A stretch of DNA of 64,000 bases from NCBI GenBank assembly GCA_000182565.2, contig KQ257450.1; one strand, written 5' to 3'. The notes under the pieces were generated by a model that saw only the letters and a list, made by a program, of their open reading frames with translations, did not search any database and had not been told where the DNA came from. Of this stretch, positions 3,444 to 26,361 are shown in pieces. Origin of the DNA: Spizellomyces punctatus DAOM BR117. Taxonomy: Eukaryota. The first letter of the stretch is position 1. Each line of letters begins with the position of its first letter. The position numbers were made by a program, and so were the translations under genes.

Positions 3444-5699
3444 ATGATTTCATTGTGTAGTTACATCATTGTTTTCCTAGCGATCCATGTCTCATCCCTC
3501 ATTGCTATACCTCACGGCCGTATTCGCACCTTCCGTTGGAAAATTACGAATATCACAGACGCTCCTGATGGCATTCCTGTCTTTGCAATAGGCATCAATG
3601 GCAGGACAGGCGCCTCGACTGTAATTGGTGCGTGAATGTTCATGCGAGTTATGTTGAATGTTTTTTGAACCTGCTGGGATTGCTGGGGCGACTCAGACGT
3701 CAATCTTGGGGACCTCATCAAAGTGCATGTGACAAATGCACTGGACGTGCCAACAGCTTTGCACTGGCATGGCATCTTACAAGAAGGTAGGCCACCGATG
3801 GAAAGGCGTACATTTGACCCAAAATAAGGACTGATATCGCAAAGGTACGGTGGATATGGATGGGCCCGCTATGGTCACCCAATGTCCTATTCCGCCAGCT
3901 GGCACCTATACGTATACTTGGCGAGCAACTGAAGCAGGAACATTTTGGTGGCATGGCCATTACCGAGGACAATGTACGACCCCATTGTTGGTTGCTCGTT
4001 GAGTGAACAACCTGACACTTCTGTGCGCATTTTCAAGTATCCGACGGCCTTCGTGGTCCGATCATTGTGCGAGGAGCTGAGACTTTTAGTACGTCCAATG
4101 AACTTGCACTGGAAACGTTGCGAGTTCCCAAAACTGACCTGCTGGCTGCCGCAACCCCAAGATTACGATGAGGAGTATATTGTTTTCTTGGAAGACCATT
4201 TCTATAGGACATCCGAAGAAGAAATAGCCGACTACCTCGTAAGTGAACGCAAACTGCGAGAATGCACGTCCGTTCACCATCAAAAATTCACCAGATCCCA
4301 CGAGCCGTTGTGCCTCTTCCTGAGTCTGGTCTCTTGAACCGTAAAGGCTTTCCCCACGGCGGGTTGGATGGCGTCGGTGACCCCTCTAATCTTACTGACT
4401 TCATATTTCAACGGAAGAAGCGTTACCTCCTACGTATCATCAATGCCGCTGCCGTCGTACCTTTTGAGTTCTCCATCGACAAACACAGAATGACAGTTGT
4501 GCAAGCAGATGCCACCGATGTGACGAATATGACTGTGGACAGTATTTATATTGATATTGCACAACGATATTCCGTCATTGTGCATGCCGATCAACTTGTA
4601 GATCGATACTGGATGCGAGCTGTGAGTATTCAAATGCTTCCGCTCTCTCCTAGTCATCCCGGCTAACGATTTTGTAAATTGACCATCCGCCATTTTAATG
4701 AAAAGAAAATGCGTGAGTGAACATGTTAATCGAATTACTCGCGGAAATATGGAGTGCTGATGTCGAGTTTACAGCGGTGTCAAAGCAGAAGCGTTCAATA
4801 GAAGTTCTTGCGACTATCACCTACGATGGAGCGGATGGACGTCAGCGTCCAAGTACAAGTGCTAAGGAGAATCCAGTCACTCTACCGGAAAACGGTCTGG
4901 CGCTGAGCCCAATGGTTCCCCTGATGGCCCCACCCAAAGCCGATAAGACGTACGTCTTTGCGTGGGACTTTCATGCAGATGAAAGTGGGCGAGATGATAG
5001 CGAAGTCACTCGCGGATGGATCAGCGTGAACATAACTAGGCCACTGACTCGGAGTGACGGGCTGAGTTACGTGACGCCAAAACGACCAACTTTGTTCGAC
5101 GTGGTGGACGGAAAGGACCCGGACACCCTGCCCAAAGAAAGCGTTGTTTTCACAGCAGAGCCTCAAGAAGTGGTTGATATTGTGTTTATGAATAGAGAGT
5201 TTCGTATGTACCAATTTCCGAGGTTATTCTTTAGTCAAATGCTCGGGCCTGTATTAACGAGGATATCCATTGATATTTCGGGGTAGCACCTCATCCATTT
5301 CACCTCCACGGCCACACGGTATGGGTCCTCGGCTACGGCACGGCCAAGTCCTATGCGGAAATTCCCTTTGAGAACTTCAATTTGACAAATCCTCTGCGCC
5401 GCGACACCTTTAGCGTCCCATCTGGAACTTGGGATGGGCTCACTTTCGGGTGGACAGTGGTTCGCTTTGTTGCCAATAATCCCGGTGTGTGGTTCCTCCA
5501 CTGTCACTTAGAGTTCCACATCATAGCAGGGCTTGCAATGACTCTGGTTGAAGACGTGGCCGCTCTGAGAAGAATGGGAATATCGCCACAAAGCAGGCAA
5601 CTATGCAGAAGCTTTGAGGAATGGAGAGAAAAGAATGAACTTGGTGAGAAACTGGTTGACGCTACGGAAGAGGGAGATATGTTGGTCATGCAGCCATGA
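3444..5699 (+). CDS. Secreted multicopper oxidase (laccase-like), multi-exon
   Basis: Signal peptide and all four Cu-binding motifs: LHWHG, WWHGH, HPFHLHGH, HCHLEFH (Leu at the axial position). No Fet3-type C-terminal TM helix. Confidence 0.95.
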
Positions 5700-5860
5700 A
5701 TTAACGGAAGACGATGAAAGCCATATAACTTTGGGTTTAGAGTTGGGTGCATAAGCCTGTTCCACTACGTGGAGGAAGCACAGTGTTAATACTTGATGCA
5801 CCATACATTGGTAACACTTTCAGCCTATTTGGTTCGAAGCTGTAATATATTTTACAACTA

Positions 5861-7383
5861 TCATCCAAGTATCTTGGTGAATTTTACGAGTTCCGCATCC
5901 ATCACAAGTCTTTTCATTGGGAGGGCTGTTAGTCCGACCATCACTTCGATGCCTTGACGTCCGGGGGCAGCGGGAATAATTACAATTACTCCGTCGCCGA
6001 CTGTGGAACCAGGAGATACAAGAAAGGGACAATTTCCAGTACCGAAATGAAGCTTTTCTGCTTCATAAAATGGATACTTGCTCCACTGAGTAACCGCGAC
6101 GTCGTCACCAAAAACCTCTGTGTGGCTGGTACGAAGAAGCGGAAGCTCGGTTGCCGGGTCCAAGGAAAGGAGATAATCGACACTGGAACGAATTCGCTCA
6201 GGAGAATGTGCCCGAATCGCTTGGCGCAACATGAGCGCCGTGGTACCCAGCGGCTGAGTGAGAAGGTTGTCCACAGTATGCGATACACATAGGCCACTTC
6301 CAACATAATGAGCAATAACAGTTTGCCTGTAAGCACAAGAGGACTGCACCCTAGGTTTGAGAGAGGCACTTACGTTATAAAATTTCCAAAGTAGCCTTTG
6401 CTCTCGGGGGCCAGTGCCTTGATCCTCTCCCGCCCATTCACCGCCAAACCTAGTTTGGTTATACCATTTTGCTCAAGCTCGCGGGCCCTGCTAACCGCCC
6501 TCCAGAAAAGTGCTGCAACAGCATCGTTGGTAGACACCCAAGAGCCATCGTTGAGACCAAGATGGGCGTACTCTTTTAGATTTGCGAGAGCTTCGCTATC
6601 AAGGATAAACTGCTTGCCGTAAATGGGCTCTGGCTTGCGAGTCATTCCCGTATCCTCTTCTCCAGTACTCAACCGGTATTCATGGTTCACATAAGAGGGT
6701 GCAGGCTGGATGATTTCAACGAGATTGGCAAGGTCACGGACAAGGTGCTTCTGCTGAATGCATATCAAATCTTCCTGGACTTCCACTGACGTTTTACCGT
6801 GCAGCTCACTCCACCGATATATGAAATCGAGGAATGCCGGTAAGTCGGCAACATAATGGTGACGGCGGAATCCCACAGCTACTTTGCTTCCTGGGAACTA
6901 CGGAAACCAAGTGGTTACCTATGACCCACGAGAATGGATGTGAACATAACTCAGCTGGCTTACCAATGTTATTTGAACGGCCAAAACTGTCTCTCCAGAT
7001 TTAGGGAACGGTCCTCGAGGAAACAGGTTGGGAGGGATGGTTTCTGGTGCAAACTGACCTTCCACCATTGGCTGAAAATCCTCTTCAGAACCCTGTGCAT
7101 ATACGAGCGTTGCTCCTTTGTTGTTGAAAATGAGACGAGGTACAGCATCTTTTTCTTCAACAAGCTCAGCGGCCAGAGCAGGATATTCGCTTAGAGCGCG
7201 TTCCAAAGAGGACGAAATAGCGCCGTGGTCTGAGAAGCGTCCACTCGGGTCATCAAATAAAAGTAAGAGAGCTGCGTAGACTTTTGGAACGACCAAGTCC
7301 AGAGGAGTTAAATTGACTGACAAGCCCGGAGGCTTTATTTCAACGGATGGCCGAATGGTGGCCTCGGATATGATGCTGATCAT
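5861..7383 (-). CDS. CoA-dependent acyltransferase, transferase/BAHD (Tri101-like) family, 3 exons
   Basis: LTPLD N-terminal motif, LAVQIT, catalytic HxxxD (HYVAD), VSTNDAVAALFW, AVNGRER, YFGN, and a DFGWG-equivalent LHFGTG. Confidence 0.9.
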
Positions 7384-7536
7384 GCTTGTAGTGGTTCAGA
7401 GTTACTGCTCGGCCAAGAATCCCAAAATGCGGGATTGGAATACTAATATGTTTGCTTCAAGCATAAATAGTTCGTTTAAAACCCTGAAGACTTATGTCCT
7501 CTGATTGGAGCAAGCTTGGTACAGCGGACCGGATCG

Positions 7537-7560
7537 GTCCACCGCATCCACTCCATCCAA
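7537..7560 (+). promoter_or_regulatory. Cluster motif, triple copy (GTCCAC CGC ATCCAC TCC ATCCAA), in the divergent acyltransferase/MFS promoter
   Basis: Exact 15-bp match at 7537-7551 plus a third half-site at the same 9-bp period. Confidence 0.75.
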
Positions 7561-7669
7561 AGAGTTTTACGCCTCGGCGACCTAGGGCGCAATGCTCACG
7601 AATATATATGTCAGTATTGTGAATTACAAATTCGTTTCGCTGTTCAGAAATCCTCAATCCCTCGCAAAC

Positions 7670-9466
7670 ATGACCATCTTATCGCAGCAAGGCTGGTCAG
7701 AATCGCAGCTCGCTTCGGTTTCGCTGGCTATACGTAAGTGTGATCCCCATTCCTGCGTAGCAGCTGTGCCCTGACATTTTTTTGATATGCTGTGTACTTC
7801 ACCAGTTTCTGTCACCCAGTTTTTGGACTTCCTGAACTTATCCGCCCTCAACATCGCAATCCCTACGATCGCTGAAGAACTCAAGATTCCAGCCGGGCTC
7901 GAAGGATGGATCCTCATCTCATACTCTTTGGCGCTATCCGCCTTCATGCTGCCATTCGGAAAGCTGGGAGACGCTTGGGGCCACAGGAACATATTTATTT
8001 GCGGCTTGCTGATCATGACAATAGCGAATATCTTTAGTGCAATGGCACCGACCTTGCCAGTACTGGCCACATTTAGAGGGTTGCAGGGTTTGGGTGCCGC
8101 AGCAACAGTAAGTATCCTGCGCAGCCAGTAGTTATGCTACGCAGCTTAATAGTTTGTCTTGCTGAAGATGCCGAACGCTTCCGCTATTATCGCCCGGATA
8201 TTTCCAGCAGGCGCTCCGCGTAACGCAGCATTTGCAAAGTAAGGAACGATCTTTAACTTTGAAAATATGATCTAACATGTTAGCAACATATGCTAGACTG
8301 GGCGCTGCAAGTGCCATTGGCAGCGCCGCCGGGCTCATCGTTGGAGGTCTTTTTAGCGGGATAATTGGCTGGCGTTACGTCTTCTATGTATTAGCACCGA
8401 TTTGCCTCTTGGTGATGGTCCTGTCACTCCTGTTCCTGCCCGCCGCACAGGATGACGAGACAGTGGACAAAGGTTTGAAGGACTTTGACATTAGCGGGAC
8501 ATTGACCTGGTTGGTGGGCATGTCTCTCATCGTATATGGTGAATATTCCTACATGACTTTCTCTACACTTGCGTGATTGAGGCTAATAGTTTACGTCGTG
8601 CAGTGCTCTCGACTACCAAGGGGGCAGCTTGGAAAGAAGTTCAAACGATGGTACTTTTAGGCATCGGCGTCGCTAGTTTCAGCTCCTTCTTCTTCGTTGA
8701 ACGCAAAGCAGCCCGTCCACTCATTCCACCATACTTGTGGCAAAATCATGTTATTGTGGTGAACTCGATTCTCATCGCCATGGTACGCGGCGGAGCGTCC
8801 ATGTTTGTCTACCTCATGTCCCTCAAACTTCAGAGAATCCTGTTGCTTTCTCCTTGGGAAACGGCATTGCAAAGTTTACCAATGGCAATTGTCGGATTCT
8901 TCTACTCTTTCTTTGTCGGCACCATCGTGAAAAGGCTTGGATTCAGTGTACCTGTCATCCTCGGCTTCGGTATGGCGGCTTTCGGATCCGCCTACTTTTC
9001 GTTTTCCTTGCACGGTCCAGATGAAAATGGTAATAATGCCTCATCGTTTTGGACGTCTACCTTTCCGTCTAGTGTGGTCTTTGTCCTTGGAACTCCGATG
9101 GTGTTCATTTCAGCGCAGCTCGCGATGCTCCACGTCGTGGAACCTCGTCAATATGCGGTGGTTGGAGCACTGTTCAACACTGCCGGTCAGATCGGCGGAC
9201 CTGTGGCACTTGCACTTCTCACGGCAATTATGAATGCAGTACTGGTCAATAAGGAACGAAGTGGCTGGTCCGAGAAAGAACGGCTGCTGGCCAGTTATGA
9301 TGCGGGGAATTGGACAATTGTAGGATGGGAGTTGGTGGGGTTGGTCATCGCGGGACTGTTTTGGTTGCGCCAAAAATTCATTGAGGAAAAGCGGCATCTC
9401 TCTGTAGACGTGGAAAGTGACGAAGGGGAGAGGCAGCGACTCCTAGGAGATACCTCCAACCCATGA
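7670..9466 (+). CDS. MFS drug:H+ antiporter (DHA2-type), multi-exon
   Basis: QFLDFLNLSALNIAIPTI, motif A GKLGDAWGHR, FRGLQGLGAA, GWRYVF, and many hydrophobic helices. Confidence 0.92.
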
Positions 9467-9694
9467 CTCTATGATTTTGTTCGTATATCAGATTCATTGA
9501 GAACATCATGAAGAATGCAATGCTTCACTGTTCAGTCAAAGATAATTCTATGACCATCAAACCCTTCTCATCTGTGAGTTTCGGCAAACCGCATGAAAAC
9601 TGCGGAGTGATGACTTTCGACTTTTGCAGTCACATATAGGGCAAGTACTACGCAAACAACTTGAAAAATGTGTAAACTCTCCGCAGCATCCGCC

Positions 9695-9709
9695 GTCCAC
9701 TTCGTCCGC
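9695..9709 (+). promoter_or_regulatory. Cluster motif (GTCCAC TTC GTCCGC) upstream of the MDR reductase
   Basis: Exact match about 235 bp upstream of ATG 9945, with extra ATCCGC/ATCCAC half-sites on either side. Confidence 0.75.
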
Positions 9710-9944
9710 ATGGATCCACTATATACCGACGCCATCAAGATTGCCGGAACAAATCGCCTACATGGCTCATTAAACAACTGGAGAAGGTAGAAACATGTCC
9801 TTTATCTGTACGCGAGTCCAGCAATTTTCCCCGTCAAAAGCCGGATTGACTTTAAAGGCCCGTCTTTACGCACCGCGATTACTTGGTCATCAGACTTGTC
9901 TTATAGCCCAGCGGAACAGTATTACCTCTATATTGACGTTAAGG

Positions 9945-11161
9945 ATGACAGTCTCTACAATGCGAGCGTATCGATATGACAACACTGGGGGCCTTGACCA
10001 ACTTCGATTACGAGAGGTCCCCAAGCCAGTTCTGGAACCTGGAGAAGCTTTAGTGAAAGTAAAAGCCAGCGGAGTCAATCTGGTACGATCTGCGGTGACC
10101 TTGCAGAAACCAACTGTCATTGACGTTTACTTTGTGCAGTCCGACGTGGTTGGAATTTGCGGTTGGCTTCCATTCGTCACGACGCCCAGAGTACCAGGTC
10201 GAGACTACGCCGGAATAGTGGAGGCGGTACGAGATCAGCATGACGACCACTGGATTGGCAGCGAGGTGTGGGGGACCGGGGGTAATGTAGGTTTTACCGT
10301 TGACGGATCATGGGCAGAGTAAGTGGGTTATGAAAGGAAAAACGCTATAACATCCTCGGTAATCTCTTTGGTCCCTCAACCCTCTGAAGGTATATCAAGG
10401 TACCTGTGAAGGCTTTGAGTAAAAAGCCGACCAACCTCTCATTTGCTGCAGGGGCAACGGTCGGTTTGCCTTGGCTATGCGCCGATCAGGCAGTGAACAC
10501 CCTGGCGAGTGTTCGTAAGGACGATGCCGTACTCATCATTGGCGCCCGCGGTGCAATTGGGTCCGCCGCTGTCCAACTATGTCGATCTATCGGCGTACAA
10601 GAGCTATACGGCACATTTTCCAGCAAGCCATCGGAATCCCCTGGCTTGAAGGCTATCGATCTGAGTGCTGCAGATGGGTCCAACATCGGTGCATATGCCG
10701 ATCTTTTAAAACGAACGGTAAAAAAAGTCAACGTTGTCATCGATGCATACGGGTCAGACTTCGACGCCCATCTACTCAACGCCTCCCTCGACGTCCTGAC
10801 GCCAGGTGGACGAGTGGTTGTGATGGCCGTGCACAGCAAGGTCAGTTTTTCCACGTTTCCAAATCTCAATGCTAGTCTTATTCTCTGAGTACAGTCAGGA
10901 GTATCGTGTCTCAATCTCCGCAAGTTTTATGCCAAGAGCCTCGTTTTATATGGATTAAGTTCGGGACAAGTGACTCAGGAAATGGGAGCACGGTTGCTCG
11001 ATAGACTTGCGCCTGGATTTGAGACTGGAATTTTCAGCAACGAGAGTAAGCCTATGGCTCTGGTAAGGTTTTCCGATGAACAAAAGGTACACGATGGTCT
11101 CAAGGCCGTGTATGAAAAGACGGGAAAGGAAAAATACGTAGTGACATTCGATAGTGAGTAG
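9945..11161 (+). CDS. Medium-chain dehydrogenase/reductase (quinone-oxidoreductase/enoyl-reductase type), 4 exons
   Basis: LVKVKASGVNL/SD, PRVPGRDYAG, GSWAEY, and Rossmann motif IIGARGAIGSAAVQ. No Zn-ligand GHE motif. Confidence 0.9.
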
Positions 11162-11702
11162 TACCAGATGGAGGGGAAAGGCTTGTGTTATACTCATCAA
11201 CAACCATCTCATGGACGTGGTTAATGGTCGAGAGCAAAAGATCATTCGTATGAATGCTGAACTAGTTTTTTTACCACTAAAATACTGCCCATTCACATAA
11301 GTGGGTCCTGAGAGGTTGATTTGGGGTTGAGAGCTACCAGACTCCTTTGGGTCGCTCCAGTCGACAGCAGGATACTTTTGGTACGGTTATCATGAGAAAA
11401 GTTCACACAGTTGTAATCCTCAATTTGGTTGCCAAGAATCAGTCGTCTCGCCTGGGGCAAGCAAGTCGCAGCATCCAACCGTGTGACTGGAGGTATTAGC
11501 GTAAGGCTAAGTGATAACCCGCTTTCCCATTAAGCTCAGGAAGTCGGATGATCCACCACCACCACCACGTAGTCGTACATGACGCTGCTCAACAAGCTGA
11601 GGTGTTTGCCATTTGCATGCAACTACAAATCTATGTGTCCATCATCGCCAAGCGTATATTTAAAGCAGGTCCATTTTTTTGGCCCTATACCAATAATATC
11701 AT

Positions 11703-13115
11703 CTAGATCGGGATAGCCTCCACGATACTAATCGCACTCCTGTTTTCATGCACATCCACAATCCGGAATCCCGCGTCGTAAAACAACTTCTTAAACTGCT
11801 CCTCTGTTCTTTGCAGAGAGTTCACTAGGGTCAGCATGTTGACATCTACCATGTGCTTGACACGGTTGGAGGTAGCGGTCATTACAAACTCGGCGGCGAA
11901 GAAACGACCGTCTTCAGAGATGGCTTGGCGAATGTGGCGAAGGATTCGTAGACAGTCAACATCGCTCCAATTGTGGAGGCACTGCTTAATCAAGAAATGT
12001 CGGTGTCGACCACTTTGAGGCTGGAAGAAGTCATGAGGAGTAAAAGTTACGCGAGAACACAGTTCGGCGTCTTCTTTCGCCCAAAACTGCAGGAAAAGAG
12101 GAGACGGCAGTTTAGCTTTAATGGTAAAATCACAATTAAGCTGTGAACTAACAAGCAAACCAACCTTTTTAGCGTCATCAATGACGCTTGGAAGATCCTG
12201 AAGTTCGAAAGTGAGATTTGGCCATCGTTTGCACAGGGCAAGATCAACTGCTCCAACCCCACAGCCAATATCCACTAGCGTGGCCTTCTCGCCGAGAATA
12301 GACCAATCAAAGTCTTCGACAATCCCGTCTTGCAAACCATTACTGTAATTCGACATCGCACCGTTCACGCGTGTCGATAAAGCAGCATTTTCCGGCTGAT
12401 GAATCCAGTCATAAAAGCTCTTTCCCATTTCCAGTTCCCACGGAGCTTTACTTGCATTGGCAAGCCGAATAGCTTCAGCAAGCCGGTTGGCACCACGGTA
12501 ACTATCATGGCCCCTACGGCAGTGAATTGTCAGAAAGTACGACAGCTTAAAATTGACAGATATCATTTCTCCTACCAGTGAAGCACAAAATCTCTCATGC
12601 TTTTAGGATGGTCCGTCCTTAAGGACGACGAAATGGCATTGTTGGTAAACTTTTCACCATTTTGGATAAAGACGGAGCGGTTGGCAAGCAGTGAGAGGAT
12701 TTGTCCTTAACCGACGAGTATTAGTACACAATAATCATGATATTGAGATCCGACGAACGAACTCACGCAATTTCCTCGGATCAGCATCTACCAGTTTAGC
12801 AATTTCATCAATTGACAACTCCGAATCTTTAAGCGCATCCGCAATGCCGAGGTCTGCCGCTGCTGTCAATGCTTTTGACTCTAAGCAGCTGCCCACAATC
12901 AAGGTAAGTACGTCCTGTGGCGGAGCAAGCATGCTTGTCAACTTGTCGACGCCATCCCAACAAGACTGGAGAGCCTTGCGTGAATCGATATTCACGGCAT
13001 TGTGGTTGCGCTTCAAGTCTGACACACTCGTTTTAATGTTTTGCAGAGTAGAAATCAATTTATCGATTTCTGAAAGTACGCTTGCAGGCTCCGCGGCAGG
13101 AATTTCGATGGTCAT
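11703..13115 (-). CDS. SAM-dependent O-methyltransferase (Methyltransf_2 type with dimerisation domain), multi-exon
   Basis: ADLGIADAL...SIDEIAK dimerisation region, LVDIGCGVG, LQDLPSVI, HDFFQPQ, KQCLHNWSD, RTEEQF. Confidence 0.93.
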
Positions 13116-13248
13116 AATGGAAAATAGTTTTTCTCCTTACGGGAGTTGGGATGTGATAATGGGTTTAAATATTTCAAGGCTGAGTTTATAAAGGAGCTCA
13201 AGGCTCCTTCGAGTGGACACGGTAGGTTGACCCGCGTCAATCCGAGCG

Positions 13249-13578: not shown

Positions 13579-15004
13579 CTACAAGCAGAGGTGATGATGC
13601 TCTACATATCCGATACCCCACTCTGCGGAATCTGTCACCCTATCGTCTACAATGGAATGGCCATTCAGATCAACTTTAATACGGGTGGTCCCACCGGTAT
13701 GCTGACATTCTGATGAGATCCTATACTGCGCCGGGAGATGGTAGTAACCTTTCTCTCCGCAGATGTCATACTTCAACAGGTAACTCGTTAATGCTGAATC
13801 ACCCTGTCGATTTTGAATAAGGGAGACGTCTGCTGGGTTCCACAAGCTAAAGAGAGGATCGTGATGGTGGGCAAAATATGCAGCAAGGACCGAGTCTACA
13901 GACATCAAAGTCATTTTAGGATTGTAGATCGCTGTTGAGGTCGCATTGCTTGCGCACGTACCTTGACCATCAGGGGACGTGGACATTATAGCATTGAGAG
14001 TGATATTCCAGCTATGTGCGCGCAATATCGACCTGCATTTCAAGTTCCGGCAGTGTGATGAGAGACAATCCTGAGATTGCCACAATATGGAAATATTCGC
14101 ATCAAACTCACCATTTGTAGTCTTTATTTACCGGAATAATTTGACCCCACCGATGACTCTGCAAAAGCAGTACGAGGATTATTGATCAGTATATACCCAC
14201 CGGTTTCTAACTTTCAGAAACGAAACTCTAATGCGTCGGCACGTACGTGAAAGCCGACATTTTGAATTGTCCACCTTTCGCCATCCGCGAACTCTACCCA
14301 TCCGTCGACGTGAGCACGAGGGATCGGGACAATGAAATTGAAAAATGGGAAGACGCTAACCGAAGAGTCGTATTGCCGAGGAATGAATGGCATGGAAATC
14401 ATACTTTCAGATATCAAAGATGTTAGACACATCCCGCAATCGACAGTTGTTGTGCCTCCACACATTTTAAACCCAGGGCTTACTTTTCGTAAGTCAATCT
14501 AGCTCTAAAACCTTCGATAGCAATTTCCAGCTCGTAGTATTTCATATCCGGCGTCCAGGAAAATTTGTTAGATCCCATTGTGAGCGAGTGATTTCCTTGT
14601 TCGCGGTACACTGATGTCGACTTCACGCTCTTTGTCCAGTGAGTTCCATTGGGTAGAGTATACTCTACGACGAAGACAGGATCGTACCCTCCGTGCGCAG
14701 GGTCGTTCAAATACCAGTTGAAGAAGAACTCGGTGTTGTTTTGCAACAGCACCACATCGAAATGCCATGATTCGAAGGCACCTTCACCAAAATGTCGTAA
14801 GCGCGGTGCATCAAAAGATCCATTTAATGCCAACGGAGGGAATCTCTGACAACTGCGGTAGGGAAGATCGAAGGCTGTCAAATGTGGGTCATCAACGAAA
14901 ACATGTGAAGCGAGATTCGTTATGGGGGTTTGTTGGATGAGCGATGGTGTCGGTGCGCCTTGGACGCCGCACAATAAGGCACAGAAAAGGACTATGAGGA
15001 TCAT
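13579..15004 (-). CDS. Secreted Diels-Alderase/AttH (lipocalin-like double beta-barrel) family protein, multi-exon
   Basis: Signal peptide MILIVLFCALLCGVQG; FDAP...ESWHFD (cf. DAP...EWWYFD); PIPRAHV; GFH/SHRWG across an intron (cf. GYHDHNWG); C-terminal GIGYVE. Confidence 0.65.
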
Positions 15005-15097
15005 TTGGGTGATGAAAGCTTCAAATGATGATGGCAAGAGGGCAGTACGAACGCTCACTCATAAAAGAGCAAATAGAACTGGGCTTGCAACTGCCCT

Positions 15098-15145
15098 ATC
15101 CACATCGTCCACCAGGACCAAAACGCGCCTGTCCGCTACGTCCAA
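15098..15145 (+). promoter_or_regulatory. Two cluster motifs (ATCCAC ATC GTCCAC at 15098; GTCCGC TAC GTCCAA at 15131) in the divergent DAase/AsnB promoter
   Basis: One exact copy and one copy with a single mismatch. Confidence 0.75.
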
Positions 15146-15293
15146 ACTGTTGCTCTGCCATCCATTGCGAGAATGAATTTTATATTCTGCGGCATATTTG
15201 TACAGCTCCGCTTGTCGCAAAGTATTTCAGTGCCGGGTGCTTGATATCTCATTTGCTTTCTTACTCGAAACTCGCAAGACACTCTCCTTAGCG

Positions 15294-17970
15294 ATGTGTG
15301 GGATCACTGCCTTTGTTGATACGGGGGGCCGCCAGAGAGTCTCCCCTGCACAGTTAGAGTCCGCTCTCGATCTCATCCATCATCGCGGACCAGACTCGAA
15401 GGGGACATTCATTACTCCGGATAGGCGAGTCGGTAAGATAATGGACAGAATGCGGTGGATTTATGACCTTGTTGTACTCTCTAACGCAAAAGAACATAGG
15501 TCTCGGGCATAATCGTCTCGCCATCATGGGTTTGGCAACAGGACAACAGCCAATTTCAAACGAAACTGGTGATATCCATGTTGTAGTGAATGGAGAGCTG
15601 TACGGATTTGAGGCAATTCGTTCTCAATTGCACGCTGACGGCCATGTGTTCAAAACCGAAAGTGATAGCGAGATTGTAGTTCACTTGTACATATTCCTTT
15701 TCAGCTTTCAGATCACTACTGGCAAAACTAATACAATTTATATTCAGATATGAGGACCTTGGCCTGTCGTTTCTCGAGCGCCTCCGCGGCGAGTTTGCAC
15801 TCTGTCTCTGGGACAGCCGAAGGGGACTTTTCATAGCCGCCCGGGACAGGTTCGGCATCAAACCATTGTACTATAGCGTAATCAACGGAGCACTTGTCTT
15901 AGCCAGCGAAATGAAAGCATTCCTTGCTCTGGGATGGAAACCCGAATGGGATATCGAAAGCATTGTGCACGGCGGTTCCTCCTTTGATAACAGAACCGTA
16001 TTCAAAGGTGTTAGCAAGGTTTGGTCGAGTGCCTGCTCACATTGCATGGAGGTACACTCATCTTCTCGTATGCATTAGCTGCCCGCTGGAAAATATATGA
16101 CTGCGACACTCTCCGGCAGCGTCGATATCCAAACGTACTGGGATGCAGCCTACCCAGACAAGCGTGTACCAGATGTACGTAATCTAGAAGATATGATCCA
16201 AGGCGTTCGTGAACGCCTTTTCGAAGCTATCAGAGTGCGAATGCGATCGGACGTGCCTTTGGCGATCTACTTGAGCGGAGGCATAGATAGCGCTGCTATC
16301 GCAGGAATCGCGATGGCTATTCTAAGGGAGACTGACGCTAAAGCGAGTATTGATGCTTTTACCATCGCATTTCCTGGTAAAGGTATAGTTTTCCTACTCA
16401 TGTACGACTTTACTCTGGCCTGAATTTTTGCACGGGTAGGAGCTGAACAGTTCGACGAAGGACCTATTGCGGAACGCATGGCAAGACACATCGGTGCCAC
16501 ATTCCATAAGATTCCCATCACAGAGGATGACCTGGTTGCTGGATTTGAAGATGCAATATGGCATTTCGAGCACCCGATGCCAGATCTGAACGCGATCGGA
16601 AAATACCTACTGTCCAAAGAAGTCCGAGACCGCAAGTTTAAGGTGCTGTGCTAGGTTTCAATTCACTGTTGGTCGGCCTCTGTCCAATATCTGATATTGC
16701 TCAATCGCATTGTCATCATAGGTCGTGCTCACCGGTGAGGGGGCTGACGAACATTTCGCTGGATATGCTTTCTTTCTGGCGGATTACCTTCGCGAACCTG
16801 ATGTGGCGGTTGAAAATCCTTTGTCGGATGTCCAGCGAGAGGCTAAATTAAGGGAAATTGAAGGAGTGACGGGCGGATCCTATGATACAGTTCTAGTCTC
16901 AAAAATGTCATACAACGACGCTTCGGTTGGACGGCAAATGCTTAATGGAATAAGCAGCCATCGTCAACTGGCAGGGGCAGCCCAAATCCCCCAAGATATA
17001 TTTCAAAAATCGCTTATAGAGAAAACTGGTGCTCCTGATGCGTGTACCGCCCTTGCGGTAGGATTGAGTGGAATAGCTAGGGAGAATGCAAGAACGAAGG
17101 TAATGTGTATTCGTTGGTGTATTTATCTCCGAGTCATAAATTCAAGCTTGCCGTCTACTCCCCTTCTACCATCAGTGGCACCCTCTGCATACGGCTTTGG
17201 TGAGTTTCTAATGCTTGGTGCTCATTATCCCCTATAGGTATTTACTCGTTTCATCAGTATGCGGAAAGTAGGACGTTTCTGGGGAACGTATTGTGTAATG
17301 TCTTGGGAGATCGTAGCGAAATGGCTCATTCTGTTGAGGGGCGCACTCCTTTCCTCGACCATCACCTATGCGCATATGTAAACAACCTTCCACCGTGAGT
17401 ATTGTCGCCGAGGTTTTCTTATTAATTATTCTAGCAGTTAGAACAACTTAACTATGTTCGCAGCTCCGTGAAGATACGTGCGTCTCAAACAGGTGAATTG
17501 ACTGAAAAATGGATATTGCGGGAAGCAGCAAAGCCCTATATTTCGGAAGAAATTTACAATAGGCGTAAACATCCCTATTTGGCACCTGTGTCAAACCTCG
17601 CCGAATCTCCCGTCGGTGTTCTTCTCAGGCAACGTATCACAAAGGAAGCTATCGACAGGCTAGGGTGGGCTCGATGGGAGGTGGTGGAGCAATTGAAGGA
17701 ATCGTTTGAAACGACGGGGTCAACTATGGCCTTACGCACATTGCTGGTCATGTTGTCATTCGTTGTGATGAGCGAAAGGTTTAACGTGAAGATCTATGAA
17801 GACAGCTCGACAGAACTTGTCACCAACTTTAAGCAAGAGTCTAATGATAGTACCAGGGATGTGGAATCCTGCCCTGGAAGTAATCCACCGCTCTTTCAAG
17901 TAGAGACGAAGCTTCCTGACGAAGATGTATCAATGATTTCTGGATGGAGATTCTATGTTCTAATTTTCAT
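15294..17970 (+). CDS. Asparagine synthetase (glutamine-hydrolysing, AsnB)-like amidotransferase; N-terminal part of a probable AsnB-MFS fusion
   Basis: N-terminal nucleophile MCGI, HRGPD, LGHNRLAI, NGELY, SDSE, ARDRFGIKPLYY, PP-loop SGGIDS, TGEGADE, DRSEMAHSVEGRTPFLD, EKWILREA. The frame runs on into the first MFS TM helix. Confidence 0.92.
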
Positions 17971-19882
17971 GTAGTGTCTGTCCTGCGATGTGTTTTTTCA
18001 AAGGCAGGCATCTCACATAGACTTTCTCCTCATATAGGTTGGGAATGGTTGTTTTCCTTGCGGCCCTTGACCAGGTGTGTAGTGTGTTCTTGGAAATGAT
18101 TTGACTCTGATTGGTGCCATATCATAAGTAACCCTTCCACTCTCATGAAAGACCATAGTTGCCCCAGCGGTGGTCAAAATCGCCGATGAATTCAATGCTA
18201 GTTCACAGCTGTCATTGATTGGCACCGCATATCTGTTGACATCGGTTAGCGTTCAACGAGAGATTGAGTACAAGTATCAACAATTTCTGATTTACGTATC
18301 ACCCCACTTAGACATGCGTTGCCCCACTCTACGGAAAGCTGTCTGACATCTTTGGCCGGAAATACACCATTATCGCGGCAGTCTTACTGTTTTCGATTGG
18401 ATCCTTGCTATGTGGAGCATCAAACGGAATGGCGCTACTTACCGTTGGACGTGCAGTCGCCGGCTTGGGTAATTTTCGATTTGTTTCAGACAAATAGAGC
18501 AAATAGCTTACTTTCGACTGTAGGAGGCGGAGGACTAATCAGTCTCGTACTCATCATCATCGCCGATATCGTTGCAATTGGTGAACGCGCCAAATACCAA
18601 GGGCTTATGGGAGGGGTTTTTGGTCTAGCTGCTGTCGTTGGTCCGCTGGTCGGAGGTGCATTTACTGATCACTGGAGCTGGAGGTGGTGCTTCTATATCA
18701 ATCTTCCAATATGCGCTGTCGCCGCTACGGCGATATTCTTTCTTTTGCGAACTCGATCCGGAGAACCAGGGAGCGTACAGCGAAAGCTGCGGCGGCTTGA
18801 CTACATCGGCACGACCTTGATCATTGTCGGTTGTGTTTGCTTGCTGTTGCCTCTGCAGTTCGCTGGTGAACGATGGAAGTGGGACAGCCCACAAACCATT
18901 ATCCTCCTGATTCTAGGCGCGGTGTTTGCTGTCGCATTTGGATGGTCGGTCACCAAAGTCTCTGAGCCGATCCTCTCACCTCAACTTTTCAAGAACCGGA
19001 CCGCCGTTGCCCTTCTGGCTACATCCTTCTGCCTTGGTGTATCTTTCTATGCAGAAGTATTTTACACCCCGTAAGTGGCTCTTGTAGTTCCCTTCTATAT
19101 CTATCGATGCCACTCCCATTGACATTTTCGCTCTTAGAATCTACTTCCAGGTTGTTGATGGTGCCTCCTCCACTGCCGCAGGATTACAGACAATCCCTTT
19201 GATTATGGGCGTTGTTTTCATGAGCGTCTTGTCAGGTACAGTCAAAACAGCTAAAGCCTGAAACATTGATGTAGCTGACCTTGTATTGTTTTTACATGCA
19301 GGCCACCTCATTGCCAAAACAAACGTCTACCTCATTTATCCATTTATTGGTTCGGTCCTTTCTAGCATTGGGCTTGGCTTGATGTCCACTCTCAATGCAG
19401 ACTCTAAGACGTGGCAGCGAATCATTTATCTGCTCATCGCGGGATTGGGAAGTGGCAGTATTGTTCAAACAGCTGTGGTCGGCATACAGCACAGTGTGAG
19501 TCCCGACCTCATTGCAGTGGCCACCAGTGCCAACACTTTTGTCCAAATTCTTGGAGGGTAAGTTCTAAATGTCATATGCCAGATCGGTATTTCCGCGAGC
19601 GTAACTCAAGGTATTTTCCTGCTCTTCAGTGTATTTGGCATAGCCATGTCTGGTGCAGTTTACAACAACGTTCTCAATCATTGCCTCTTATCCGATGCTC
19701 CTTCCGTGGACGCTGCCAAATTGCAGTCTGCCAACGATCTTATACAGACGTTACCGGACAACGTCAGGCATGCGGTTGAAGCATGCTTCACAACGAGCCT
19801 TCAGAAGACTTTCCTATCATTAGTGCCATTTGCGGCACTTATCTTTGTCTTCATGCTGTTCACAAAGGGAAGGAAATTTTAG
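17934..19882 (+). CDS. MFS drug:H+ antiporter (DHA2, 14-TMS); C-terminal part of a probable AsnB-MFS fusion
   Basis: Spliced reading WRFYVLIFM/LGMVVFLAALDQ/TIVAPAV...AYLLTS/TCVAPLYGKLSDIFGRK...GRAVAGLGGGG...SWRWCFYINLP; stop at 19880-19882. Confidence 0.9.
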
Positions 19883-19930
19883 AGTGCTTAGGGACACTGG
19901 GTCAAACTTTGAAAGCTTGAGCATGTAGCG

Positions 19931-20117
19931 TTAGGGTTTCTAAATCTCGCCATCTGTGTATTATACGATATATCTATGCAATATGATGTCTTGCGGTAGT
20001 TGTGGCCTGGCTTCAGGGTGTTGATTAGGGTTAGCGCTCCGGATCTCGCCATCTGTGTATTATATGATATATCTATGCAATATGATGTCTTGCGGTAGTT
20101 ATAGCTGGCTTCCAGGG
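19931..20117. repeat. Tandem direct repeat (about 99-bp period, 2 copies) in the convergent 3' intergenic region
   Basis: ATCTCGCCATCTGTGTATTATAYGATATATCTATGCAATATGATGTCTTGCGGTAGTT at 19944 and 20043; each copy is preceded by TTAGGGTT. Confidence 0.9.
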
Positions 20118-20257
20118 AGATCCCATTCCTCAACACATCGCGGAATAATGCAAAGTGGATTTCAAAGCCCTAGGAAAGTTCGAGCCTAGCATATGTATTG
20201 CAAGTCATAGCGACAAATTTGTCTAAAGAATCATAGAAGTCCTGAACTGTCCTAAAT

Positions 20258-22922
20258 CTACAAGGTCTCTGTGCTCGCTGAGAGTAACAAAAGGTGGTAG
20301 CCAAAGGTTGAAAATAACAGCAGGAGAATTATCAAAGGAAGGGTGTAAGCAAGGTTGCGTGCAATTGCCCGATGATAACGACCTGCTTCTGTAATGGTGC
20401 TTTGTGATGCAGCTGATTGCACTCCTTCCCTAATGGGCATCCGACTAGTGATAGCAACGTTGCATTCGTCGAAGGTTTGAAGAATGATAGTTATTTTCGC
20501 TTTCTGGAGGGTGTCGTCCGTCGTGGAAAGCGTTAATGAGATCTTTCCATCGATATCGTTCGAGATGAAAATGTCGGTGCAAGTAGCAGAGGTTTTGGTG
20601 CTTGTAACCCCTTGCGCTAGATCCTCCGATGCAGAAGAGTCGGCGTATGATTTTCCATGTTCTGTGGACAGCTTCTTCTGCCTCCTGGTACTATCGACGG
20701 AAGAGACAGAGTTTGTGGGCTCTTTGTACCTTGTGGAGTCGTTTGGATGTGTGGTGCCGCAAGATGCTCTGTCTTTACTGGTATCGACGGAAGAGACAGA
20801 GTTTGTGGGCTCTTTGTAGTTTGTGGAATCGTTTGGATGTGTGATGTCGCAAGATGCTCTGTCTTTACGCGTAGTTGGAGAAGACTTCTTTTTACTAGCA
20901 TCGTCGGATGTTTTATGAGCTTCCGTAGTCTGCGGTTTCTTGCCTTGTCTCTCTTGCGGGGAATGACTTTCTTCTTCAAAAAAGCCTGGGAGAATTACAC
21001 GTTTGCCAGCGCGGATTCTATCCTCTGTAACTACAGCCAAGTGTCTCGGTCGTTCCAAAAACATGTGCTGCGGAACAAACAGATGCATTGCATCATAGGA
21101 GGTTCCCAACTTATGAGAGAAGGCGATAAGTTTGCGATGTTCTTCATTCATGAATCGGAGGCCGTTACTATTGAACGATTGGGTGAGAGGATCACCATCT
21201 TCAGTAATATCGGACGCATTCAACGGGAAAGGATAGTTGGAATGCTGGGCAAAAAACGTGGTGATGACATCGTTGAAATTGCAGGACAGGATTTGACTCA
21301 CGGCCTTCTTATTGTTCTGGCAATCGCAGTCGTCGTGTAGTCGGGACCACGGACCCTCTCCAGTCACGCCGGAGACTAACTCGGAATTTCCTCCGTCGAG
21401 AGAGTTTGCGATAATACAAATGTGCGGTTCATCGAGACAAGGATCAAAGTTGGTTGCCGATTGAATATCTATAGTCTCCACGTGCTTGACGGTAAAAGTG
21501 ATCTCGTTGCCGATTATGTAGCGACGCAGGACATCTTCATCTGCATCATCTCCCGGCGGTGCCAAGGCTGTCGTGGGATGAGGCTCGATGCGAAAGTAAT
21601 TTGCGTGGTATCCTGAATATTGGCAGTAGGCAATCAATTCAATGCTACTAACTAGATAACACCAAACCACTTACATACCTTGAGGACAAAAGCGATAAAC
21701 TAACAAAAATGTAGGAATATCCCTCATGACCCAGGCGTGCCTGATTGCAGGTATAGTCAAAAAGGTTGGAACGGCCGCAATTCCACGAGCTGACACACGC
21801 ACGGTCTCGCGAACCGCTCTATAAAATATAGAAGTACAAACATTACCAGCAGAACCTTGTATGCAGCAAAAGTGTTACGAAGCACTACCTTTCAACGCTT
21901 CGAGGCATTCCCATTGCCCCACATAACTTCTCCATGAAACTGCACGAAAGACGCGAGACCCATATCTGCATCATGGAGATCTCGTCGTTTATGAGGCGGG
22001 GTCCGTCCTTGCGCACCCTGTACGTACATCTGGCTGGGGTGTGCACGCAGCGGCAGATCAGCTCTTCCCCGTCGCGAAGGACGTGGGCATCGAAGGCACG
22101 CTGTTGCGAGACGCGATATATGAAGGCTTCTGCATCCGGTCGGTGCAAACATGTTTTGAAGCGGGAAAGAAAATTCGCGTAGACCAGAAAGCGAACGACA
22201 GTGCGGAAGTTCTTTACATCCCAGATGGGATGTCCTTCGCTCGAAATTGCTTTAACCCGACCGCCGTTGCCCGAATGCCTGATCTGAGGTGAGCCGGGCG
22301 GCGTAGGAAGCTGATGGTTGGGAGAAATCGGGACAGCAAGATCGAAGCTGCCACTTGCACGGGCCTTGGTCGAGTGAATAGTGTTTTCCGTGAAAAGGAG
22401 ACTGTCATAGCTCTCAGGGTCAACCCATGTGGTAAACCATTCCGATAGACCGACTTTCCGATAGAAGGCGTTGAGGGTTTCTTCCTTCCTGCTCAACCCA
22501 TTGATTTTCTCGACGGGGGTATTTTCATCACAAAGTTTTCGGTGTACTTCCATAGCTTTCGTCACCATGGCTTCCAGCTTTCTCTTGGTCAGATTGAATG
22601 CCTCCAGCGTTTGATCAGGATGTTTTCTGTACTCCCCAACTATCTCCATGAGCAGCATGGGGCGAATCTGGCATGCACAATCTCCAACGTGAGCATCAAA
22701 ATCGAGGAAGCCATCCCATGAGTACGAATTGTTCTTGATATCAGTGCTATGGCGACTCGACTCTCCGATGACTTTTGCAGGAAACAAGAGATTTTCGAAG
22801 CTCTCCAGCGCATGAAGGGCGTCTCTCGCTCCGCGGATAATCCGTCTAAGGTGGAACGGATACAGCCTCTGCAAGAGAGGTTTCTCGCGAGCAGATTCAT
22901 CGTCAAAAAGAAGAGTCGCCAT
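20258..22922 (-). CDS. Uncharacterised 842-aa cluster protein with a C-terminal hydrophobic anchor, 3 exons
   Basis: ORFs 21885-22922 and 20258-21670 join in frame through GT-AG introns 21819-21888 and 21613-21678 (2529 nt CDS). Head-to-head with the NRPS-like gene. Confidence 0.8.
20692..20868. repeat. In-frame 90-bp tandem duplication (30 aa) inside the unknown gene
   Basis: KDRASC(D/G)(I/T)THPNDST(N/R)YKEPTNSVSSVD occurs twice. Confidence 0.92.
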
Positions 22923-23095
22923 TACGAAAGTCAGTTAGAACCGCGATAACACACAGTGGAACACATATTCCCGCCGGACTCATTTATTAAGAGGACATGA
23001 TGGTAAGGCCTGCCTGCGGACTGTTCTATCCGCCTGTTGCGGGTGGCAGTGCTCTGTTTTCTGTTGTACATCGGATGATGGGAGCATTCCTCCGA

Positions 23096-23110: not shown

Positions 23111-23338
23111 TCGCTTGGCAGCCGTGCACTGCCGGTAAACGTTGCCCCATCATAGTTTTTGTTTGCGTCATCTTTGGCGCCAGCCGCTAGGTATAGACGA
23201 ACCCGCACGACGGTCCTGCCATTCTGAAGTTTGGCCGACTCCGCCTGGAGTGAGTGGGACTCGAAACTATTAGACAAAATCCTGGCCGCCCTCGTGCAAG
23301 GAGCGTCCCCATTCTCACCGAAATCAAATATCGCAGCA

Positions 23339-26300
23339 ATGAAGGTGCCTCTTAAACTTTTGAAGTTCGTTCAACAATGCCGTTGGCTGGCAAAGCAGGC
23401 GAGCAACCGGCAGCGCAACGAGACCGACATACGACAAATCCTCGTGAGATGCGCACGCCGGTATCCTGGTCGTGGCCTTTACTACGTTGCCAGCGTATCA
23501 GGAATAGAAAACCCTACTTTCACGACCTATATGGAACTTCTCAACCGGGCGGTTCTCATCTCCAGCTTTCTGAAAGCGAAAGGTCTATCTCCCGGTCGTG
23601 TAATAGTTCTCTACTTTAACAACCACCAGGACAACATCGAATATTTTTGGGGGGCATTGTTTGCGGGCTTGTTGCCCTGCGTGCTAGGGCCTCTCAACCC
23701 CAGCGTGCCAGGAAAGAATAGCAAGATGGTCTCCTACCTCCACCGCCTGTTGAACAAGCCAATATTTCTCACACGCCAATCACAATGCGCTGACCTTACC
23801 AAAATGACCGAAGAAGATACACTCGACGTCCTTACTGCCGACGAACTCGAATCTAAGGTAGCTGTCATGACGAAGAGAACGCATTCGCATAGACAAAATG
23901 GCGGATCCGCGTACGACACGACTTTGCTTCTTCTTACCTCCGGCTCGACTGGCATGCCCAAGGCTGTGGAGCTGACACACGGCAACATTTTCGCCGCATC
24001 GCAAGCTAAAACGGCCTCTTACAACCTTAAATGTGATGATACGGTGCTCAATTGGGTTGGGTTCGACCATGTGGCATGCGCCGTTGAGAATCATATAACC
24101 CCCATGTGCGTGGGAGCAAATCAAGTGCACGTCCTGGCTCCCCTGCTTATCAACGATGTCGGCTCTTTTTTCAAAATGATTGAGCATTATGGTATTACCC
24201 TGACATTTGCCCCAAATTTCCTTCTTGCAAAGATGAACGCTTGTCTGCGAGAGAATATGGAGCAATATCGAGGAAAGCTCGATTTATCTGTTTTGCGACG
24301 GATCAACTCTGGCGGGGAGGCAAATGTGGTAGAAACAGGTCAGCAGCTACTGGAAGCGTTGGAGAAGGCCGATGCACGTTTTGCCGGGTGCATTACACCT
24401 GGATTTGGCATGACCGAAACCTGTGCTGGATGCATATACAATCTTGGCTACCCGTTTGTTGATGCTGGCAGAGAACTGGCTAGTGTTGGCCGCTGCGTGA
24501 AAGGAGTTCAGATGCGCATTGTGGACAAGGATGGGAAGGAGACATCATCAGGGAGAGTCGGAGCGCTACAGATTCGCGGCCGTATGGTTTTCAAAGGATA
24601 TTTCAACAATCCTGTCGCCACTCGCGGATCGTTTACCGATGGCTGGTTCAAAACCGGGGATTGCGGGTTTGTAGTAGATGGAGTACTTACATTGACCGGT
24701 AGAGCCAATGATAGTATTATCGTAAACGGCATCAACTACGGCACATCCGAACTTGAGAGACACCTGGAGAGTGTCCCGGGCATCACAAAGTCATTTGTGG
24801 CTGTCCTTACAACTCGCCCGCCAGGTTCAGGTCACGAACATTTGGCCATCGTTTACCTTCCCTCATTTGCCTATCCCGACGACGAAGAGACCCTAGTAAA
24901 AACCCACGCTGCTATCCGTGAGCGCACTGTACTATATTGCTCCAAAGTCCCCGAAATCATCCTTCCATTGCCACAAAAAGCTATGGAAAAAACATCACTC
25001 GGCAAGCTCCCTCGTGGCCAACTACGGAAGCAGTTGGAAGGAGGTGGCTTTGATTGCCATCTGTCAAAGGTTGAAGAAATCTTGGCAAAACGACGACAGG
25101 TTCTGAAAGCATCACCGGCAACCCCAGCTGAAAGTACTCTGGCGACATTTTGGAGCCATATTTTCGGGGTTCCTCAAGAAAGCTTGGACGCGGAGGAGAA
25201 CTTTTTTGAGCGTGGCGGTTCGTCTCTGGAAGTAATAAGGTAAATAGGTGTCACTACGAGGACATGCGACTTCCTTATTGGCGCAAGTATATTCATTGCT
25301 ACTATTTCGTCTGATCTGTGCAGATACAAGTCCATGATCGTTGAGCATTTCAGCCTTGACGACAACTGGCCTGTCATAAGGATCATGCAATATCCGACCA
25401 TCCGCAGCTTGGCTCATCATCTTACATCGGAGACGCAGTTCGCTGAGAATGTAAAACCAAATTCAAATTACGATCCCCTCATATGTTTGCAACCAACCGG
25501 CTCCAGGACACCTATCTTCTTTATCCATCCTGGAGTGGGAGAGGTTCTCATTTTTGTCAACCTGGCAAAGTATTTTATCAATGAACGCCCTTTCTATGCT
25601 CTTCGTGCCCGAGGATTCGACGAGGGTCAGACCTATTTTGAATCAATGGAGGAAATGGTTGAGACGTACACACGCGCAATTGAGCGGAAGCAACCTCATG
25701 GGCCGTATGCCCTTGCAGGATACTCTTACGGAGGTGTTGTAGCATTTGAGATAGCAAAAAAACTCGAAGCCCGAAATGCAGAGGTCAAGTTCGTTGGACT
25801 GGTGAGTTGCTTTTAAGAAACCTCAGAATTATTCTCCAGCTGATCACATGGATATACTAGGTGAACATCCCCCCTCATATCAAGTCCAGAATGTTGGAGA
25901 TCAATTGGACAGATGGCTTCCTTAATCTCTCATACTTTTTAGAATTCATTACAAAAGCGGAGGCAAAGGAGCTCGCTAGCCAGCTTCTCCCACTGTCTCG
26001 CCGCGAGCAACTAGACTACGTGTGGCATCGTGCCCCAAAGGCTCGAAGAGCGGAGCTAGGTCTCGATGTGGAACGCCTGGAAAAGTGGGTTGATCTCGCC
26101 CAATCGCTGCTTGCCTGCGGTCGCGCTTATGAACCCTCGGGAATGGTTCGCGGCTGCGACTTGACTGTATTCTATGCGGAGCCTCTTAAGGGAACAAAGA
26201 CGGATTGGTTGGTGAACCAATTACAGGACTGGGCGAACTATGCCCAACAAAACGTTCAGTATGTTGAGGTGCCAGGGTCCCATTATACGTTAATGAATCA

Positions 26301-26361
26301 ACTATACGTAGGACACTTTCAAAAAATTTTTAAAGATAGCTTGGCTAAAGCTGGTCTTTAA
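23339..26361 (+). CDS. NRPS-like A-T-TE quinone synthetase (atromentin/polyporic-acid synthetase type), 959 aa, 3 exons
   Basis: A domain LTSGSTGMPK, NWVGFDHVA, SGGEAN, GFGMTETCAG, WFKTGD, KTSLGK; T domain FFERGGSSL; TE HPGVGEVLIFVNLAKYF, GYSYGG, NIPPHI, HYTLM. Introns at 25240-25323 and 25802-25860. Confidence 0.96.

Follow-up and report, generated by a model that had tools for sequence, protein, structure and literature searches.

Does one gene of the chytrid Spizellomyces punctatus DAOM BR117 encode an enzyme and a transporter as a single polypeptide, or have two neighboring genes been read as one? The question is raised by positions 15294-19882 of a 64,000-nucleotide (nt) stretch of contig KQ257450.1 (assembly GCA_000182565.2), called here the window; all positions are numbered from its first letter. 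A first-pass annotation, made from the letters of the window, had proposed that an amidotransferase of the asparagine synthetase B (AsnB) type runs in frame into a major facilitator superfamily (MFS) efflux pump of the DHA2 type, giving a fusion of roughly 1,200 amino acids (aa). Our analysis indicates that this is probably a genuine, Spizellomyces-specific gene fusion, expressed as one mRNA and one polypeptide of ∼131 kDa. The evidence comprises a coding frame that crosses the junction without a stop, homology to the transporter that begins before the junction intron, and preservation of the same frame in a second Spizellomyces species.

Gene structure across the junction

We read the region 15000-20200, listed its stop-to-stop frames and placed introns by frame continuity and homology. 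The resulting model (Table 1) begins at ATG 15294, and its 15 introns are all of the GT..AG type and 55-79 nt long. Spliced translation yields a frame of 1194 aa, close to the size first proposed, in which an Ntn glutamine amidotransferase is followed by an Asn_synthase domain, an acidic linker and a DHA2-type MFS transporter; the same architecture is deposited for S. punctatus and for Spizellomyces sp. 'palustris' (hereafter palustris).

The two halves meet within exon 9. The frame encoding the AsnB C terminus (...LSFVVMSERFNVK) has no stop codon and, 48 codons farther on, reads ISGWRFYVLIFM; translation of the whole exon gives ...LRTLLVMLSFVVMSERFNVK, the linker and then ISGWRFYVLIFM. The Asn_synthase match from Pfam occupies residues 12-83 of this translation. 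The acidic linker of about 50 aa that was said to lead directly into the first MFS helix is therefore 48 codons long (17792-17935), and the raw frame across it is open. The next feature, an intron with GTAGTG at 17971 and AG at 18037, has the bounds and the 67-nt length originally ascribed to it and removes the in-frame TAG at 17972-17974. Splicing it out gives ...LIFM/LGMVVFLAALDQ/TIVAPAVV, which reproduces the predicted helix-1 sequence ...LIFM/LGMVVFLAALDQ/TIV. Ahead of the intron stand the residues RFYVLIFM, which match the N-terminal half of helix 1 in the closest stand-alone MFS protein (P0006), in an alignment that continues over the splice into VVFLAALDQTIVA. Because helix-1 homology precedes the intron, the MFS coding sequence starts within exon 9, the exon in which the AsnB part ends. 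Judged from this alignment, the halves have no non-coding DNA between them, as the first-pass annotation had held.

The linker itself has the character of coding sequence. Counted by eye, it carries 11 acidic and 3 basic residues, and its coding score in frame 0 is +0.144 per codon, compared with -0.159 and -0.759 in the other frames. This value equals the lowest among 23 coding-sequence windows (0.144 to 0.532) and exceeds that of every one of 29 intron windows (-0.699 to -0.067). Between the AsnB domain and helix 1 the S. punctatus frame contains a single ATG, at 17933-17935 rather than at 17934, where the internal Met had been placed.

Away from the junction, one intron (16377-16442) offers tandem splice choices, with donors at 16377/16384 and acceptors at 16439/16442 (TAG/GAG). 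At this site our model reads FPGAEQ, the S. punctatus record FPAEQ and the palustris record FPGKGAEQ. The second MFS intron is 18075-18151.

Conservation and spread of the fused frame

The deposited protein KND04271.1 (XP_016612310.1, UniRef100_A0A0L0HSD9; P0154, 1193 aa) agrees with our spliced model at 1193 of 1194 residues, including the junction. The remaining difference, G299, is accounted for at the sequence level by the tandem acceptor, 16442 having been used instead of 16439. The record is named 'asparagine synthase (glutamine-hydrolyzing)', which describes the enzyme half only. The fused model is already public, and we found no published discussion of the fusion itself; the literature yielded no paper citing the accessions or treating the fusion, although the gene may figure in supplementary lists to papers on chytrid genomes or transcriptomes.

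Used as a query against longer proteins, the junction exon gave two matches in 416 candidates, the first of which (P0002) carries both sets of Pfam domains. This protein, TPX69658.1 (1141 aa, 'asparagine synthase'), is the palustris ortholog, has the same AsnB-linker-MFS order and shares one 90% cluster with KND04271.1. Its model starts at the equivalent of S. punctatus residue 56, so that the first 55 residues are absent and the model is imperfect. The two species are identical at 575/600 positions in the AsnB part, 32/47 in the linker and 462/492 in the MFS part, and all three aligned without a gap. The palustris linker is free of stops and indels and has the same length. With no gap across AsnB, linker and MFS, the frame has therefore been kept through the linker, which by these identities appears to be the fastest-evolving part of the protein yet retains its length and phase. 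If neutral divergence matches the 94-96% protein identity of the halves, an unconstrained stretch would be unlikely to hold 68% aa identity without an indel.

Comparison with orthologs, proposed at the outset as a check, also bears on where translation could begin. In palustris the fusion is kept, GWRF at the start of helix 1 is GLRF, and the Met before the helix is Val, so that in palustris the stretch from the AsnB domain to helix 1 lacks an ATG.

The closest relatives found outside Spizellomyces are two separate proteins of Geranomyces variabilis, a member of the same order. The AsnB-like protein P0274 (672 aa) is 62% identical over residues 1-657 of the fusion, and the DHA2 MFS protein P0006 (529 aa) is 59% identical over residues 707-1187; the two come from different assemblies. 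P0274 leaves a tail of 9 aa unaligned and P0006 a head of 40 aa. Their sum, 49, equals the number of unaligned residues in the fusion (658-706), which may reflect an end-to-start join after the split from Geranomyces or may be a coincidence. A short remainder past the aligned part is also seen in other stand-alone AsnB-like relatives; in several it is 2-15 residues long. An 83-row alignment misplaced the MFS relatives, putting them at 11-16% identity with its first row where BLASTP gives 59%, and was set aside as input for structure prediction.

How far does the fusion extend? Pfam bore out the expected domain content, on single exons as on the deposited protein (GATase_7/GATase_6, Asn_synthase and MFS_1/TRI12), and the architecture, for which a search had also been proposed initially, did not appear beyond Spizellomyces among the matches examined. 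A HMMER scan with TPX69658.1 of 1.84 billion cluster representatives returned 140,165 matches at E ≤ 0.001. Among the best 150 of these and two relatives taken from the word-based search described next, 106 have the AsnB half only, 46 the MFS half only and 0 both; the representative of the fused cluster is itself absent from the best 150, and fusions inside 50% clusters may be hidden. In a word-based search with residues 540-830, both domain sets occur in 1 of the 120 proteins listed, the TPX69658.1 cluster. The ESM Atlas (clusters of at least 50 members) gave MFS clusters only, at 0.77, below the counting level, and no fused cluster. With no AsnB-MFS fusion found outside Spizellomyces among 50%-cluster representatives, the top 120 proteins of the word-based search and Atlas clusters with at least 50 members, the fusion appears to be lineage-restricted. 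When near-identical fragments spanning residues 630-780 were sought, the best of 120 listed was 44% identical; the collection lacks such fragments of S. punctatus and provides no evidence either way.

The word-based search also listed MFS domains joined to unrelated domains. Match P0273, of 1831 aa, combines tRNA-ligase and dehydrogenase families with an MFS domain, and P0285 an MFS domain with an acetyltransferase. Across fungi and actinobacteria (P0273, P0285, P0299 and P0340), the partners include tRNA ligase, acetyltransferase, SOD/HMA and tRNA-guanine transglycosylase. Some of these joins may be real, and many are probably merged models.

Transcript evidence and competing explanations

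Four sequencing runs were compared with positions 15100-20100. The only raw-read RNA run, X8, bears the same species label and consists of 3'-biased 60-nt reads, of which ∼6% were read. Its sole sense-strand 3' peak in the region lies past the MFS stop: sense depth in the last three bins is 7.7, 35.5 and 9.7, with the maximum of 35.5 in 19776-19942, and 3 reads end in a run of 19 unaligned A behind 19998. No sense reads fall across 17104-19107 and there are few in the AsnB exons. The 3' end past the MFS stop is thus the only one detectable in run X8. At the place where an AsnB mRNA on its own should terminate, the run has none; it does not favor such an mRNA in this sample, though one is possible, and the isoform switch by intron retention that the first-pass annotation put forward is a conjecture. 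Run X1 contributes a single 195-nt contig, which shows the splice 18245-18311 only, and X9 has no match within 15100-20100. The run index lists no RNA run for 17300-18500. In the DNA-like contig set X2, 17226-18644 is present without a single difference, so that no assembly slip underlies the junction; X2 may be the source sample.

Reads of X8 in the opposite orientation reach a depth of 2.8-5.3 over 15601-16101 (exon 3 and intron 2 of the AsnB part), and within the junction intron, at 17980, lie the ends of five such molecules. They may reflect antisense transcription or internal priming. A 75-nt direct repeat lies past the MFS stop (19944-20018 and 20043-20117, 89% identical, spacing 99), and the poly(A) site at 19998 falls within its first copy. 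A contig of X2 leaves the match at 20001 with a loose end whose letters resemble the sequence after the second copy, as if the repeat were single-copy.

The locus might instead yield mainly separate products, the fused form being minor or silent. An internal start in the last AsnB exon, at ATG 17933 or at the Met of ...VVMSERF, would give an MFS mRNA, and intron retention or early polyadenylation would give an AsnB protein ending ...VLIFM at TAG 17972. The S. punctatus sequence lends itself to this, with an in-frame ATG four codons before helix 1 and a TAG directly at the donor, such that retention of the intron ends the frame at once. No read joins the AsnB and MFS halves, and sense reads estimated from bin depths number ∼3-4 in the AsnB exons against ∼150 at the MFS 3' end, a disparity that a 3'-biased library would equally give for a single long mRNA. 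The codon at 17933 is, however, Val in palustris, and in a transporter started there the conserved Asp of helix 1 would be residue 23. The median position of this Asp is 79 among 124 stand-alone relatives (450-660 aa); only 3 of the 124 have it at 24 or less, and the proteins with the Asp at 4, 9 and 10 seem to be truncated at the N terminus. A retained-intron AsnB would end in half a membrane helix, and X8 has no sense-strand 3' end in 17104-19107. Separate products would also have no need of an indel-free linker frame, unless the linker were the N-terminal tail of an MFS protein started within the AsnB coding region. We consider predominantly separate products unlikely.

The join could also be an artifact or a decaying gene, either two neighbors merged by an error of sequencing, assembly or gene prediction, or a recent stop loss with non-functional read-through. 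Merged MFS models are common in fungal annotations, and the truncated start of TPX69658.1 shows that at least one of the deposited models is imperfect. Here, however, there is no stop for a gene predictor to skip, as the raw DNA frame is open; the X2 DNA contig matches this DNA throughout its span of the junction, and the same open frame occurs in the assembly of a second species, a comparison that largely refutes the artifact. Against decay, the halves are 94-96% identical between the species, with the motifs MCGI, SGGIDS and LDQTIV intact, which points to purifying selection. Together these observations make an artifact or decaying gene very improbable.

Several points also weigh against a genuine fusion. 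In the runs compared, no RNA read or contig spans the splice 17971-18037 or connects AsnB to MFS exons, the single raw-read RNA run being 3'-biased and composed of 60-nt reads. Fungal MFS models are often joined to unrelated domains, and a deposited fusion alone is weak evidence. The gene models are automatic, and the one from palustris may have been guided by S. punctatus proteins; the two models are then not independent, and only the conserved frame is. The palustris linker is only 68% identical. Finally, 48 stop-free codons arise in 5.5-7% of random draws with linker, intron or intergenic base composition. An open frame in one genome alone is only mildly unusual, and it is the comparative evidence that carries the weight. 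Considered together, the data favor a single fused gene product as the likely outcome of this locus.

Enzyme, transporter and gene neighborhood

In KND04271.1 the enzyme half contains GATase_7 at residues 50-169 (1.4e-39) and Asn_synthase at 242-628 (2.5e-74) by Pfam, and it passes TIGR01536 with 427.4 bits against a cut-off of 267.1. The protein starts MCGITAF, placing a Cys directly after the initiator Met, the position of the nucleophile in class-II amidotransferases. Its YLSGGIDSAAI segment aligns with LSGGLDSS of 1ct9; SGGxDS is the PP-loop motif for ATP binding. The best match in the PDB is a hydroxyamidotransferase (7ylz, 6.2e-52), with E. coli asparagine synthetase B (1ct9, 6.6e-46) ranking behind it. 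Both are of the same two-domain enzyme type and align over residues 1-383 and a second stretch near 516-590. In contrast to AsnB, the enzyme half of the fusion is ∼100 residues longer, with an insert at ∼385-515 that the PDB alignments skip, and is joined to a transporter. Beta-lactam synthetase (1jgt) and the lasso-peptide cyclases are examples of family members that do not make asparagine. Because its members include enzymes that amidate or cyclize other carboxylates, 'asparagine synthase' is a family name only, and the activity is a predicted one.

The transporter half matches MFS_1 at residues 717-1113 (1.2e-51) and TRI12 (2.1e-12) in the deposited protein. The DHA2 exporters EfpA, EmrB and QacA, which are the closest solved structures, align with residues 702-1169 (E-values 1.4e-29, 1.4e-28 and 4.5e-22, respectively); unlike these, the Spizellomyces protein belongs to a eukaryotic branch and bears a 700-residue cytosolic enzyme on its N terminus. 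The score for TIGR00711 (efflux_EmrB), 196.6 bits, falls under the cut-off of 230.2 of this model, which was built for bacterial and archaeal annotation, and an S. punctatus paralog carries the DHA2 name from its source record. Hydropathy of at least 1.5 marks 13 separate segments between residues 710 and 1188, and full-length alignment with 14-helix relatives suggests a fourteenth (helix 2, ∼745-765). Family membership suggests export by proton antiport. MFS N termini are cytoplasmic and AsnB-type enzymes are cytosolic; a cytosolic enzyme can therefore be fused at this position without a topological problem.

The surrounding genes (4247-13136 and 23228-26361) look like a putative secondary-metabolite cluster. 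Downstream lies a gene resembling a nonribosomal peptide synthetase (NRPS); 3' of its AMP-binding domain, our reading of the translations finds a carrier-type motif and a GYSYGG thioesterase-like region extending to ∼26361. Between this gene and the fusion, a minus-strand ORF (21885-22934) ends ...PRSVER with AG/GTAGTG, the same donor-with-TAG layout as at 17971. The first-pass annotation had reported that the neighboring gene uses a GTAGTG donor at 21888; the hexamer is indeed on the minus strand after this ORF (CACTAC at 21884-21889 on the plus strand) and fits a donor, but its use as one does not follow from this. GTAGTG may be a regular donor form in the S. punctatus genome.

Table 1. Positions of the fused gene, its parts and neighboring genes in the window
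Feature	Position	Strand	Description	Basis
Whole fused coding region	15294-19882	+	16 exons, 15 GT..AG introns, 1194 aa, stop TAG 19880-19882	Spliced translation
Exons 1-3	15294-15432, 15500-15686, 15748-16018	+	MCGI (Cys2) N terminus and class-II glutamine amidotransferase domain	GATase_7/GATase_6 matches
Exons 4-8 and first part of exon 9	16079-17791	+	Asn_synthase (PP-loop ATP pyrophosphatase), SGGIDS, end ...MSERFNVK	Pfam, TIGR01536
Junction exon (exon 9)	17464-17970	+	A single frame encodes the AsnB C terminus, the linker and the N-terminal half of MFS helix 1	Translation, Pfam, alignment
Linker	17792-17935	+	48 codons, IYEDSS...DEDVSM	Frame 0 stop-free
Junction intron	17971-18037	+	67 nt, GTAGTG...ATAG, splits MFS helix 1; in-frame TAG 17972-17974	
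MFS exons 10-16	18038-18074, 18152-18244, 18312-18468, 18524-19070, 19138-19235, 19302-19557, 19630-19882	+	MFS_1	
Poly(A) addition site	19990-20000	+	After MFS stop	3 reads of RNA run X8
NRPS-like gene	23228-25243	+	AMP-binding domain	Domain match
Multicopper oxidase	about 4247-5699	+	Upstream	
BAHD-type transferase	5861-7395	-	Upstream	
Another MFS	8543-9466	+	Upstream	
Zinc-type dehydrogenase	9774-10888	+	Upstream	
O-methyltransferase	11703-13136	-	Upstream	

If the locus encodes a fusion, as we think likely, its N-terminal part is predicted to be a cytosolic, AsnB-type amidotransferase that uses glutamine and ATP; a flexible acidic linker of ∼48 residues would tether it to the cytoplasmic N terminus of a DHA2-type MFS protein, predicted to be a 14-helix proton antiporter. 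The enzyme would activate a carboxylate as an acyl-adenylate and amidate it with ammonia derived from glutamine. The tether would hold enzyme and transporter 1:1 at the membrane, so that product or substrate could be handled beside the transporter. That the amidation is a last step coupled to export, as the first-pass annotation suggested, is likewise conjectural. The gene neighborhood allows a guess at the substrate, probably a small metabolite from the NRPS-like cluster and not aspartate. A fuller proposal, which we offer tentatively and regard as doubtful in all its parts together, is an 'amidate-and-export' machine, in which the tethered AsnB-type domain, working at the inner membrane face, would amidate an intermediate from the neighboring NRPS-like (A-T-TE) cluster and pass it straight to its own DHA2 pump, a form of vectorial catalysis. 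Such a machine would have arisen in the Spizellomyces lineage by end-to-start joining of genes that are separate in Geranomyces.

The gain from this locus is modest, as both halves come from well-known families and the model is in GenBank under an enzyme-only name. The locus does lie in a putative secondary-metabolite cluster, and few clusters of this kind have been described from chytrids. S. punctatus can be grown and transformed, which makes the fusion directly testable. More broadly, enzyme-transporter fusions are natural experiments on metabolite channeling: they indicate which biosynthetic step sits at the membrane and link an orphan transporter to a chemistry.

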